7,590 bases of DNA, from IMG/VR virus record IMGVR_UViG_2778261559_000019; one strand, 5' to 3'. Numbering within the stretch: the first letter of the stretch is position 1; each line of letters starts with the position of its first letter. This DNA is from a virus (taxonomy: Duplodnaviria; Heunggongvirae; Uroviricota; Caudoviricetes). The position numbers and the translations under genes are program-made. Shown piece after piece: positions 6,180 through 6,616 of this stretch. The notes beneath the pieces were generated by a model. It saw only the letters and a program-made list of their open reading frames with translations. It had not been told where the DNA came from and did no database searches.

Positions 6180-6207
6180 TTGCTGTAACGGCAGAGTTAA
6201 GTAGGAT
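6180..6207 (+). promoter_or_regulatory. putative hok/mok mRNA promoter
   Basis: -35 TTGCTG (6180-6185) and -10 TAGGAT (6202-6207) place the transcription start near 6211-6215, the position where the 5' segment complementary to the mRNA 3' end begins. Confidence 0.35.
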
Positions 6208-6261
6208 TGCTGCGGGTGCTTGAGGCTATCTGCCTCGGGCATGAACACCAACGGCAGATAG

Positions 6262-6310
6262 ATAAAAGCCCCACCCGACTATAAATCGAAGTGAGGCCCC
6301 TATATGCTCG
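6262..6310 (-). ncRNA. sok: candidate Sok-like antisense RNA (antitoxin of the hok locus); ends approximate
   Basis: On the minus strand, a hairpin (complement of 6268-6297; stem GCCUCAC/GUGGGGC with one G-U pair) followed by UUUUAU. The same stem on the plus strand has a C-A mismatch. It overlaps the mok Shine-Dalgarno and start codon (6291-6306). Possible minus-strand -35 TTGACC (complement of 6342-6347). Confidence 0.35.
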
Positions 6311-6516
6311 TCACATATAGATTGCCTCTTACGGACCGAAAGGTCAAGGAGAAGCAGGCTATGAAGCAGCAAAAGGCGATGTTAATCGCCCTGATCGTCA
6401 TCTGTTTAACCGTCATAGTGACGGCACTGGTAACGAGGAAAGACCTCTGCGAGGTACGAATCCGAACCGGCCAGACGGAGGTCGCTGTCTTCACAGCTTA
6501 CGAACCTGAGGAGTAA
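6304..6516 (+). CDS. mok: mok-like reading frame (same-frame N-terminal extension of hok, 70 aa)
   Basis: ATG 6304 with GTGAGG 7 nt upstream; shares frame and stop with hok, as in annotated chromosomal mok/hok pairs. Confidence 0.5.
   Translation: MLVTYRLPLTDRKVKEKQAMKQQKAMLIALIVICLTVIVTALVTRKDLCEVRIRTGQTEVAVFTAYEPEE
6361..6516 (+). CDS. hokD: Hok/Gef-family type I toxin (51 aa), HokD/RelF-like
   Basis: MKQQKAMLIALIVICLTVIVTALVTRKDLCEVRIRTGQTEVAVFTAYEPEE is a single transmembrane helix plus the conserved Hok C-terminal motif, and matches HokD/Gef-type toxins as recalled. AAGGAG 9 nt upstream of the ATG. Confidence 0.9.
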   Translation: MKQQKAMLIALIVICLTVIVTALVTRKDLCEVRIRTGQTEVAVFTAYEPEE

Positions 6517-6584
6517 GAGACCAGGCGGGGGAGAAATCCCTCGCCACCTCTGATGTGTCAGGCATCCTCAACGCACCCGCACTT

Positions 6585-6616
6585 AACCCGCTTCGGCGGG
6601 TTTTTGTTTTTATTTT
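6585..6616 (+). terminator. rho-independent terminator of the hok mRNA
   Basis: Stem AACCCGC-ttcg-GCGGGTT followed by TTTTTGTTTTTATTTT. Confidence 0.7.

Follow-up and report, generated by a model that had tools for sequence, protein, structure and literature searches.

An intact hokD-type hok/mok/sok locus in a Qin-like prophage of Escherichia coli and its predicted R1-like RNA switch

The hok gene found in the window analysed here, a stretch of 7,590 nt of viral DNA, raises the question of whether it belongs to a complete regulated toxin-antitoxin locus or stands as a lone toxin gene; the RefSeq annotation of the locus contains the toxin CDS only. The original prediction, made from the sequence, was that of a complete hok/mok/sok locus, and all the features that it listed were found at or near the coordinates given by means of an Rfam covariance model, Pfam, MFE folds, covariation, and sokC mapping (Table 1). 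By the matches to Rfam and Pfam, folding, comparison with relatives, and mapping of sokC, positions 6180-6612 form a complete R1-type hok/mok/sok type I module. The host element is a lambdoid prophage of the PPompW type, similar to Qin, from EHEC-lineage E. coli. Matches at 100% identity exist in the chromosome of E. coli E2865 and in records of PPompW prophages, in which the gene is annotated as hokD/gef, and it is already known that the element is an ordinary one of a catalogued kind whose exact sequence is public. The locus sits between P and Q, in the same orientation as the early-right operon (O, P ... Q), and is flanked by the paa moron on one side and by rem-like, DUF968, and Q genes on the other. 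As had been pointed out, relBE is absent as a neighbour, and paa (AcfC-family adhesin, SBP_bac_11 fold) lies upstream instead.

Table 1: Features of the hok/mok/sok locus, in positions of the window.
Feature	Position	Strand	Basis or detail
Putative hok promoter	6180-6207	+	-35 TTGCTG 6180-6185, 16-nt spacer, -10 TAGGAT 6202-6207
Predicted full-length hok mRNA, ~395 nt	6214-6610	+	RF01794 start 6214; terminator end near 6610
tac / 5′ fold-back (fbi) arm, CGGGUGCUUGAGG	6213-6225	+	folds; almost no variation among 43 relatives
Candidate metastable co-transcriptional hairpin GAGGC-UAUCU-GCCUC	6222-6236	+	read from sequence, inferred
Conserved 5′ stem-loop between tac and ucb	6226-6261	+	folds and alignment of relatives
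Predicted Sok RNA, 55 nt	6312->6258	-	9-nt single-stranded 5′ tail, hairpin, then CUUUUAUCUAU
ucb (anti-SD of mok)	6266-6278	+	folds
mok Shine-Dalgarno (SD) GAGG	6293-6296	+	7 nt 5′ of ATG 6304
mok, 70-codon ORF	6304-6516	+	in frame with hok: MLVTYRLPLTDRKVKEKQA + Hok
Putative Sok promoter	6319-6347	-	-35 TTGACC 6347-6342, 17-nt spacer, -10 CAATCT 6324-6319
dcb, GCCUC	6324-6328	+	pairs with mok SD in truncated fold
hok toxin gene (HokD, 51 aa)	6361-6516	+	Pfam, PHROG, RefSeq; SD AAGGAG 6347-6352
UACG at Tyr47, TadA A-to-I editing motif	6499-6502	+	read from sequence
3′-UTR stem-loop, 9 bp, GAAA loop	6524-6545	+	folds and relatives
3′ fold-back (fbi) arm CCUCAA(C)GCACCCG	6566-6579	+	repeats, MFE fold, relatives
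Intrinsic terminator AACCCGC-UUCG-GCGGGUU + U-run	6585-6612	+	-11.8 kcal/mol, z -3.2

The toxin matched HOK_GEF of Pfam (E=1.2e-23, 82.9 bits against a cut-off of 22) and PHROG 251, "MokW-like host killing" (2.8e-33), and its RefSeq accession, WP_000813254.1, is that of HokD (RelF) of the K-12 Qin prophage, the two 51-residue proteins being identical. The score obtained with the NCBIfam Hok subfamily model was 48.5, below the cut-off of 73, because that model is narrow in scope. The structured 5′ leader, formed by tac, the stem-loop, ucb, the Sok target, and dcb, was a full-length match to the RF01794 covariance model of Rfam (model positions 1-157 of 157 at 6214-6363, 103.9 bits with a gathering score of 59, E=2e-23). 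Another Rfam candidate, isrK at 6525-6606, stayed at 24.9 bits, below its gathering score of 50, and was judged to be a by-product of the GC stem-loop and the terminator.

The predicted mok reading frame is an in-frame N-terminal extension of hok, with no out-of-frame overlap. The same is seen in K-12 mokC/hokC, which have a common stop codon, and in the hokW locus with its 70-aa ORF; in plasmid R1, in contrast, mok is out of frame with hok. The mok SD is invariant among the relatives. The motif at Tyr47 is a Tyr-to-Cys recoding site as in hokC/D/E, and in three relatives this codon is already TGC. The second conserved cysteine of HokD requires the Tyr-to-Cys edit, and editing of the K-12 hokD mRNA amounts to 6% (PMC12214031); low editing may be a limit on HokD toxicity. 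HokD/RelF is among the Hok homologues whose overexpression lysed cells (10.1101/2025.08.07.668861).

Regarding the ends of the hok mRNA, T6211 and G6212 are probably outside the RNA, because the Rfam model starts at 6214 and the homology to distant relatives sets in sharply at 6212-6213; judged from these limits, the transcription start is predicted at about G6214. The -10 hexamer of the putative hok promoter aligns with TAGAAT of hokW and TATAAT of K-12 hokC. A consensus promoter scan of the locus missed both promoters, that of hok and that of Sok, so that the two assignments rest on position and homology. The hok promoter of R1 is weak, and the failure of the scan to call the hok promoter here fits that. 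At the other end, the strong terminator that had been described closes the locus, with its stem at 6585-6602 followed by TTTTTGTTTTTATTTT.

Folding of the full transcript had been proposed as a check. The unconstrained MFE fold of 6213-6608 (-166.4 kcal/mol, z -7.7) recovered both the fold-back stem and the pairing of ucb with the mok-SD region at 6286-6297, while the unconstrained fold of a 3′-truncated RNA (6213-6562) gave the tac/ucb and mok-SD/dcb pairings. The partner of tac was thus 6566-6579 in the full-length fold and 6266-6277, within ucb, in the truncated one. In the 43 relatives the core of tac/ucb is 99% paired and mok-SD/dcb 98.6%, and the mok-SD/dcb pairs never vary; as the pairs of both helices hardly vary, they are to be regarded as conserved and not as supported by covariation. 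The structure of the truncated form as a whole was 84.5% paired in the relatives' alignment; sliding reduced this to 38-47%, and both members had changed in 31 of its pairs. The candidate metastable hairpin was assigned tentatively by analogy with the 5′ sequence of R1. The concept of such metastable structures has been published, and the switch predicted here between full-length and truncated forms matches the R1 model (PMC9841398). It was also possible to see two further conserved elements: the stem-loop at 6226-6261 is 95.6% paired, with compensatory changes in two pairs, and that at 6524-6545 is 97.6-97.7% paired, with compensatory changes in four. By analogy with R1 (PMC9841398), the latter is likely to be the protective 3′ end of the processed mRNA.

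The original prediction had postulated a fold-back helix of 15 bp with one bulged C between the two ends of the mRNA. The pairing is present at the segments proposed. A repeat search showed 6211-6219 to be complementary to 6573-6581 (9 nt, 100%) and 6220-6232 to 6559-6571, and the MFE fold pairs 6213-6219 with 6573-6579 and 6220-6225 with 6566-6571, leaving C6572 bulged. The helix in the RNA is 12-13 bp long and not 15, because T6211 and G6212 are probably upstream of the transcription start. Considering the window alone, such pairing is just moderately unusual, since equally good pairing arose in 61 of 5000 dinucleotide-shuffled versions of the 3′ UTR (p~0.012) and one decoy within the window, near 1121-1208, pairs equally well with the 5′ end; therefore, the shuffle test was set aside and the main evidence is comparative. 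When duplexes were sought locus by locus, a 5′-3′ helix of 12-17 bp, 338-383 nt downstream, was present in about 40 of the 46 relatives, with compensatory changes among them (for example, GGGUGC/GCACCC against GGGCGC/GCGCCC; GAGG/CCUC against GAGA/UCUC and GAAG/CUUC). In a MAFFT alignment (A2), 84% of the cells of the fbi helix were paired, against 35-58% with the partner slid, and one of its pairs was UA in 27 cases and CG in 12. The pair counts of the MAFFT alignment are too low for the outer helix, because the Photorhabdus loci, which have no bulge, are offset there by one column; in the locus-by-locus duplex search these loci pair perfectly. That chance produced the long-range complementarity and the hairpin of the antisense strand around an ordinary small ORF, as the shuffles and the decoy might suggest, is therefore a reading of negligible probability. 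It is contradicted by the match to the RF01794 model, by the helix at the same place in the relatives, by its appearance in an unconstrained fold, and by the strand-specific fold of the antisense RNA, and we consider it refuted by the comparative data.

A minus-strand hairpin with a U-run over the mok start had been interpreted as a Sok antisense RNA, and both the strand-specific fold and the position of sokC are consistent with a predicted RNA of this kind. The ends of Sok were mapped through an alignment (A4) from the annotated K-12 sokC (NC_000913 16952-17010). The energy of the resulting 55 nt was -21.4 kcal/mol on the minus strand (z -4.7) against -8.3 on the plus strand (z -1.3). The hairpin spans ucb and the mok SD, and the 9-nt 5′ tail spans the mok start and is complementary to mok codons 1-3. 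As we read the alignments, the putative promoter occupies the position of the hexamers of sokW (TTGCCT / TAACCT, predicted) and of K-12 sokC (TTGACC / CACTCT); its -35 is good and its -10 is weak, with 2/6 of the consensus, although A at position 2 and T at position 6 are retained. Among E. coli genomes, 593 carried the sequence of the Sok region with an identity of ≥99%. As a separate observation, the Sok segment (6258-6312) shares only 44-48% identity with its counterpart in loci with hok genes of 99-100% identity, and 74-82% with its counterpart in loci of Citrobacter and Photorhabdus, where the identity of the toxin genes is only 71-76%. The 620 E. coli genomes with this variant of the segment had essentially one copy each; they can carry up to 6-7 hok places, and among phage records the variant was seen in PPompW prophages only.

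The counterpart of this locus in K-12 was compared in the same way. It had been stated that hokD follows relBE in Qin, and relB-relE is indeed directly upstream of hokD in a K-12-type genome, with homology to the window from ~6347 on. From that point, 14 nt before the ATG, to ~6697, K-12 hokD is 98-99% identical in DNA; the shared stretch covers the 3′ UTR, the 3′ fbi arm, and the terminator and ends just upstream of the rem-like ORF. K-12 hokD has neither the hok promoter, tac/5′ fbi, ucb, and the mok start nor the Sok gene with its promoter, and relB-relE is found there instead, although the 3′ fold-back element is still present without its 5′ partner. As the K-12 match starts only 14 nt before the ATG, K-12 represents a 5′-truncated remnant and the complete form has been kept here; by sequence comparison, the rearranged state is that of K-12. 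The genomic rearrangement as the defect of K-12 hokD was already described by Pedersen and Gerdes in 1999, as cited in PMC7232551 and PMC12214031. According to the annotations, the downstream order (rem-like, 92-aa ORF, DUF968/ydfU-like, Q) is as in Qin, and several upstream genes are also in Qin order (dicB, ydfC, and a dicA/dicC-like repressor pair). Between the two origins that had been offered for the locus, the gene order and the partnerless fbi arm of K-12 favour retention over independent acquisition.

Other hok systems allow the locus to be placed within the family. hokW-sokW, of the Stx2 prophage Sp5 and 933W-type phages, is also a prophage-borne hok/mok/sok, 86% identical in DNA over 417 nt and with the same tac, dcb, and fbi sequences. 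It differs in its position, which is early-left (ea) in the phage; in the C-terminus of the toxin (FVDYESEK in HokW, FTAYEPEE here); in sokW, which has 71 nt of complementarity to its target, a 21-nt insertion in the hairpin, and another tail sequence; and in the terminator region 3′ of the fbi arm, which it does not share. It has been shown experimentally to be a type I system, RNase III- and Hfq-dependent, in which sokW counteracts the toxic HokW and whose Sok vanishes on induction (PMC8621323). Plasmid R1 hok/mok/sok (parB) has the same architecture, the same predicted switch (tac/fbi, ucb/mok-SD, tac/ucb, mok-SD/dcb), the 3′ stem-loop, and a Sok antisense to the mok start region (PMC9841398), but it is plasmid-borne and its Hok is just distantly similar; HokW, a close relative of the Hok described here, has 44% identity to R1 Hok (PMC8621323). 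Postsegregational killing is proven for R1, whereas killing by the present locus is a prediction by analogy. The chromosomal hokC/mokC/sokC (gef) of E. coli shares the in-frame mok, a short-type Sok hairpin, a similar target of the Sok 5′ tail (CCCCCTATATGCTGAACAC in hokC, CCCCTATATGCTCGTCAC here), the same Sok -35, and the same 1-nt gap at the -10. It occupies a core-chromosome site, its CDS is 84-85% identical, and in K-12 its 3′ fbi arm is cut off by IS186, whereas the locus studied here is uninterrupted.

Taking these data together, it is very probable that an intact hokD-type hok/mok/sok module with an R1-like mechanism resides in this PPompW-type prophage and couples killing to induction or loss. 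By homology with R1 hok/sok, on which the mechanism rests, a weak promoter would produce the hok mRNA of ~395 nt, in which tac would pair with the 3′ fbi arm and ucb would hide the mok SD, so that the closed RNA would be neither translated nor bound by Sok. Slow 3′-exonucleolytic trimming would then take off the terminator and the fbi arm, whereupon the 5′ end would swap to ucb, the mok SD would go into the stem with dcb, and the start region of mok would open. As long as it is made, the unstable Sok of ~55 nt would pair with this region and RNase III would cut the duplex; once its supply ends, Mok and Hok would be translated and the 51-aa Hok would depolarise the inner membrane. We infer in this way the transcript ends, the 3′ processing, the expression of Sok, the toxicity in native context, and the biological role of this copy. 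That role is most likely, by analogy with hokW-sokW, a killing coupled to induction or loss, with prophage stabilisation as a possible second effect. In hokW-sokW, RecA-dependent induction is followed by the loss of Sok, and lysis and phage release are accelerated by Hok (PMC8621323), and hok is enriched in prophages (10.1101/2025.08.07.668861). Since the locus is co-oriented with the early-right operon, read-through on induction would cross hok in the sense direction and oppose the Sok promoter, and the locus would presumably be activated by it.

On its sequence, it is plausible that the locus is functional. Nevertheless, as cited in 10.1101/2025.08.07.668861 from Pedersen and Gerdes (1999), the intact chromosomal hokA, hokB, and hokC gave no postsegregational killing and no activation by rifampicin, and since they are intact yet inactive in those tests, structural completeness is no proof of activity. 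This agrees with a copy that is an intact but physiologically silent passenger, never reaching toxic expression at native single copy, possibly through inefficient 3′ processing, low Tyr47-to-Cys editing, or weak translation; the 6% editing of hokD in K-12 (PMC12214031) and the weak consensus matches of both promoters point the same way. We consider this unlikely, though a serious contender, because all regulatory pairings are kept with compensatory substitutions across genera, which argues for continuing selection on the regulation of a harmful product, because the prophage relative hokW-sokW works at single copy (PMC8621323), and because chromosomal Hok coding sequences are toxic when overexpressed (10.1101/2025.08.07.668861). 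Less probable still is a role mainly in abortive infection or superinfection exclusion, in which a lytic phage shuts off host transcription, Sok stops, and Hok kills the cell before the phage cycle ends. In its favour, protection from T4 was obtained with R1 hok/sok carried by a high-copy plasmid (cited in 10.1101/2025.08.07.668861). Defence genes are frequent among prophage morons, and the locus adjoins paa in a moron-rich stretch. Yet hok was not enriched near defence systems in a survey (10.1101/2025.08.07.668861), the sole prophage hok/sok tested, hokW-sokW, gave a lysis and phage-release phenotype (PMC8621323), and slow 3′ processing would make for a slow response, compared with the T4 cycle, at single copy. 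Killing coupled to induction or loss is thus the role that we prefer.

Much of this has been published already (the hok/sok family with its fold-back switch, the truncation of hokD in K-12, and the enrichment of hok in prophages), and the discovery value of the locus is little. Its practical value is that of a clean and complete hokD-type reference showing what K-12 has lost (hok promoter, tac, ucb, mok start, and Sok), and the Sok and mok features could be added to the RefSeq annotation. A more tentative proposal, which we hold to be somewhat doubtful, is that the Sok-recognition segment is an exchangeable specificity cassette. Each pair of co-resident hok loci differs at ≥3 positions of the Sok-tail target; however, co-resident loci were not more divergent in this target than loci of different genomes (mean 7.0 against 7.9 mismatches per 18 nt; 22 pairs), and selected orthogonality is therefore without statistical support. 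If selected orthogonal Sok/target pairs did exist, the many lambdoid prophages that share an EHEC genome would each regulate their Hok independently of the others, and a type I system would then provide a concrete example of swapped antitoxin specificity. The locus also offers a natural single-copy system, in a paa-carrying prophage, for asking whether the lysis assistance of hokW also operates in other EHEC prophages and whether the Sok RNAs of co-resident prophages cross-react.

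The locus had been read originally as a complete hok/mok/sok system, and all the elements listed for it were present. It is a known element which had been correctly read from the sequence, with the toxin already annotated and the locus recognised by Rfam and PHROGs. The predicted toxin ORF gives a product that has the RefSeq accession of K-12 HokD and matches PHROG 251, "MokW-like host killing". The mok start lies in the hok frame and therefore Mok is an N-terminally extended Hok. This is not anomalous, since the curated annotation of MG1655 gives K-12 mokC and hokC a common stop codon, and the hokW locus of the Stx2 prophage Sp5 carries the same 70-aa ORF. 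At 6499-6502 the Tyr47 codon UAC followed by G forms the motif for A-to-I editing by TadA, which is reported to recode Tyr to Cys in the hokC, hokD and hokE mRNAs; one conserved cysteine of HokD depends on this low-level edit (PMC12214031). The codon is TGC at the DNA level in three relatives (L028, L032, and L055).

Features of the hok/mok/sok locus and of the surrounding prophage region
Feature	Position	Strand	Details
cI-like repressor	927-1334	minus
cro			gene in the window
YdaT-like gene			gene in the window
DnaT-domain replication initiator			gene in the window
lambda-P homologue			gene in the window
DUF1627 gene	3673-4407		flagged frameshifted by PGAP in the identical E2865 record
Fimbrial pseudogene	about 4570-5100		internal stop per PGAP in the identical E2865 record
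paa	5267-6025		AcfC-family adhesin, SBP_bac_11 fold; annotated in E2865; the gene upstream of hok
Putative hok promoter	6180-6207	plus	TTGCTG, 16 nt, TAGGAT; weak
mok ORF	6304-6516		start 57 nt upstream of hok
Predicted Sok RNA	6312 to 6258	minus	55 nt; from sokC mapping
Putative Sok promoter	6347-6342 (-35), 6324-6319 (-10)	minus	TTGACC, 17-nt spacer, CAATCT
hok toxin ORF	6361-6516		51-aa Hok/Gef protein; Pfam 1.2e-23
Terminator	6585-6602		followed by a T-run
rem-like ORF, 92-aa ORF, DUF968			in this order downstream of hokD
RusA and Q	past the window end		after DUF968

The structured regulatory leader was supported by the Rfam covariance model RF01794, which matched over its whole length at 6214-6363 with 103.9 bits (gathering score 59). 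Both halves of the 5'-3' complementarity were recovered by a repeat search, and folding of the full transcript, which had been proposed as a check, gave an unconstrained MFE structure of 6213-6608 (z -7.7) closed by the pairing of its ends. In this fold-back helix (fbi), 6213-6219 is paired to 6573-6579 and 6220-6225 to 6566-6571, with C6572 as the bulge. The single bulge of the original prediction thus stood and its 15 bp did not: both the start of the Rfam model and the abrupt beginning of homology with distant relatives put the 5' end at 6213-6214, so T6211 and G6212 are probably upstream of the transcription start and the RNA helix would have 12-13 bp. The terminator was found as predicted. 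A sub-threshold Rfam match at 6525-6606 (24.9 bits, gathering score 50, E=0.034) to isrK, an Hfq-binding sRNA of Salmonella, is probably a by-product of the overlapped hok 3' UTR stem-loop and terminator hairpins.

Taken alone, the fold-back duplex is only moderately unusual; when the 3' UTR was dinucleotide-shuffled 5000 times, 61 of the shuffles paired equally well with the 5' end, and so did one unrelated site in the window. The comparative evidence for a fold-back beyond chance was decisive. Across 61 related loci from Escherichia, Shigella, Kluyvera, Citrobacter, Pantoea, Erwinia, and Photorhabdus, nucleotide homology typically began at 6212-6213 and continued through the 3' UTR, and the first 18 nt had a 12-17-bp partner 338-383 nt downstream in about 40 of the 46 full-length loci. 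The partners co-vary, from GGGUGC/GCACCC in Escherichia to GGGCGC/GCGCCC in Photorhabdus, and from GAGG/CCUC to GAGA/UCUC or GAAG/CUUC among the related loci. When 43 sequences were aligned with MAFFT, the fbi helix was 84% paired versus 35-58% with the 3' partner slid by 1-3 columns, and one of its pairs was found as UA (27), CG (12), and UG (3).

In the full-length fold, the region of the mok Shine-Dalgarno (6286-6297) is paired to the element ucb (6268-6278). After removal of the last 46 nt (6213-6562), the 5' end paired instead with 6266-6277 (tac/ucb, tac being the 5' arm of the fold-back helix), and the mok Shine-Dalgarno GAGGC (6293-6297) paired with GCCUC at 6324-6328 (dcb). This shift between computed MFE folds on 3' removal is as predicted by the switch model of plasmid R1 (PMC9841398). 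Among the 43 relatives the truncated-form structure was 84.5% paired (38-47% after sliding), and in 31 of its pairs both partners had changed. The core pairs of tac/ucb and SD/dcb were almost invariant, that is, conserved and uninformative for covariation. The 9-bp hairpin with a GAAA loop at 6524-6545 was 97.6-97.7% paired with compensatory changes, and by analogy with R1 it is likely to be the 3' end that protects the mRNA after processing.

The ends of Sok were mapped by alignment from the annotated K-12 sokC (NC_000913 16952-17010). The predicted minus-strand fold of this RNA has a free 5' tail of 9 nt that is complementary to mok codons 1-3, followed by a long hairpin and CUUUUAUCUAU; it reached -21.4 kcal/mol (z -4.7), compared with only -8.3 (z -1.3) for the plus strand of this segment. 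The hairpin and U-run claimed over the mok start are thus strand-specific, which we attribute to minus-strand G-U pairs whose plus-strand counterparts would be C-A mismatches. The putative Sok -10 is a poor match and was not called by a consensus promoter scan; as read in the alignments, the sokW and sokC hexamers occupy the same position, and the K-12 sokC -10, CACTCT, is similarly poor. The TAGGAT of the putative hok promoter aligns with TAGAAT in hokW and TATAAT in hokC. By comparison with hokW-type loci there is a 1-nt deletion beside the Sok -10 (6324/6325) and a 1-nt insertion in its -35 region (6344), both also in hokC-type loci, which jointly preserve the 17-nt spacing and the in-frame mok. 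The related loci L003-L005 and L016 have the extra base and lack the deletion, so mok should be out of frame there.

The segment covered by Sok (6258-6312) is mosaic. It has 44-48% identity to loci whose hok CDS is 99-100% identical and whose hairpin is 21 nt longer, and 74-82% identity to Citrobacter and Photorhabdus loci with only 71-76% CDS identity. Of 5426 E. coli genomes, 620 have this variant, in nearly every case as a single copy, and among phage records it was found in PPompW prophages only. In other genomes, co-resident loci always differed in at least 3 of the 18 positions of the Sok-tail target; they were no more divergent there than loci from different genomes, and therefore selected orthogonality of Sok/target pairs is still a hypothesis.

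The contrast with the cryptic prophage Qin was right. The K-12-type match is limited to about 6347-6697 (98.3% identity), and in the pairwise alignment homology breaks off 14 nt before the hok ATG, with relB-relE on the upstream side in K-12. K-12 hokD is therefore devoid of the hok promoter, tac, ucb, the mok start, and the Sok gene and promoter, but still has the 3' fbi arm and the terminator. Of the two origins offered, independent acquisition or retention, the data favour retention, since the annotated gene order both downstream (rem-like ORF, small ORF, DUF968/ydfU, Q) and upstream (dicB, ydfC, dicA/dicC-like repressor pair) corresponds to that of Qin. The window has the complete form and K-12 the rearranged remnant, a rearrangement already reported by Pedersen and Gerdes (1999), as cited in PMC7232551 and PMC12214031. 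In K-12 hokC (NC_000913 16400-17400), the alignment ends just past the 3'-UTR stem-loop, at the IS186 start, so the 3' fbi arm is missing; this is a second, different mode of disablement of a K-12 hok locus.

By its gene content the window belongs to a Qin-like lambdoid prophage. The 601 bases at 6100-6700 were 100% identical to the chromosome of the bovine strain E. coli E2865 and to O157:H7 "PPompW" prophage records, which label the gene "gef: phage maintenance protein"; with O157:H7 strains the identity was 99.8%. Among 5,426 complete genomes of E. coli, about 1,900 contain 80% or more of the query, and 562 records match it at 99% identity or more; enrichment in prophages is described in a survey that covered 44,248 Hok homologues (10.1101/2025.08.07.668861). 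The "binding-protein moron" upstream of hok proved to be paa, a virulence-associated moron, and behind it, at 6032-6045, lies a small hairpin resembling a terminator, CGTCCTTCAGGACG. Between paa and the hok promoter there is a perfect 24-bp palindrome, CCGATATGGGAATTCCCATATCGG (6145-6168), with an EcoRI site at its centre and no T-run behind it. Considering the PGAP frameshift and internal stop, decayed morons stand beside intact ones in this early region. A perfect 19-bp tandem repeat, CTGCCGTCCGGCATCGTCC, of 3.4 copies (7476-7539) lies inside the DUF968/ydfU-like gene, in its 5' part; the E2865 annotation puts the start of this gene near 7344. Three copies add 57 nt and so keep the reading frame.

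By homology with R1, the predicted locus most likely works as follows. The closed full-length hok mRNA would be inert and 3' trimming would open it; Sok would bind around the start of mok and the duplex would be destroyed by RNase III, and if Sok were lost, Mok/Hok would be translated and the membrane damaged. As a caution, the intact chromosomal loci hokA, hokB, and hokC gave negative results in post-segregational-killing and rifampicin tests (10.1101/2025.08.07.668861). The best precedent for the biological role is hokW-sokW of Sp5, a proven type I toxin-antitoxin system in which sokW RNA disappears after RecA-dependent induction and HokW accelerates lysis and doubles phage release (PMC8621323). 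The locus has the orientation of the early-right operon, and we infer that transcription reading through upon induction would cross hok in the sense direction and oppose the Sok promoter.
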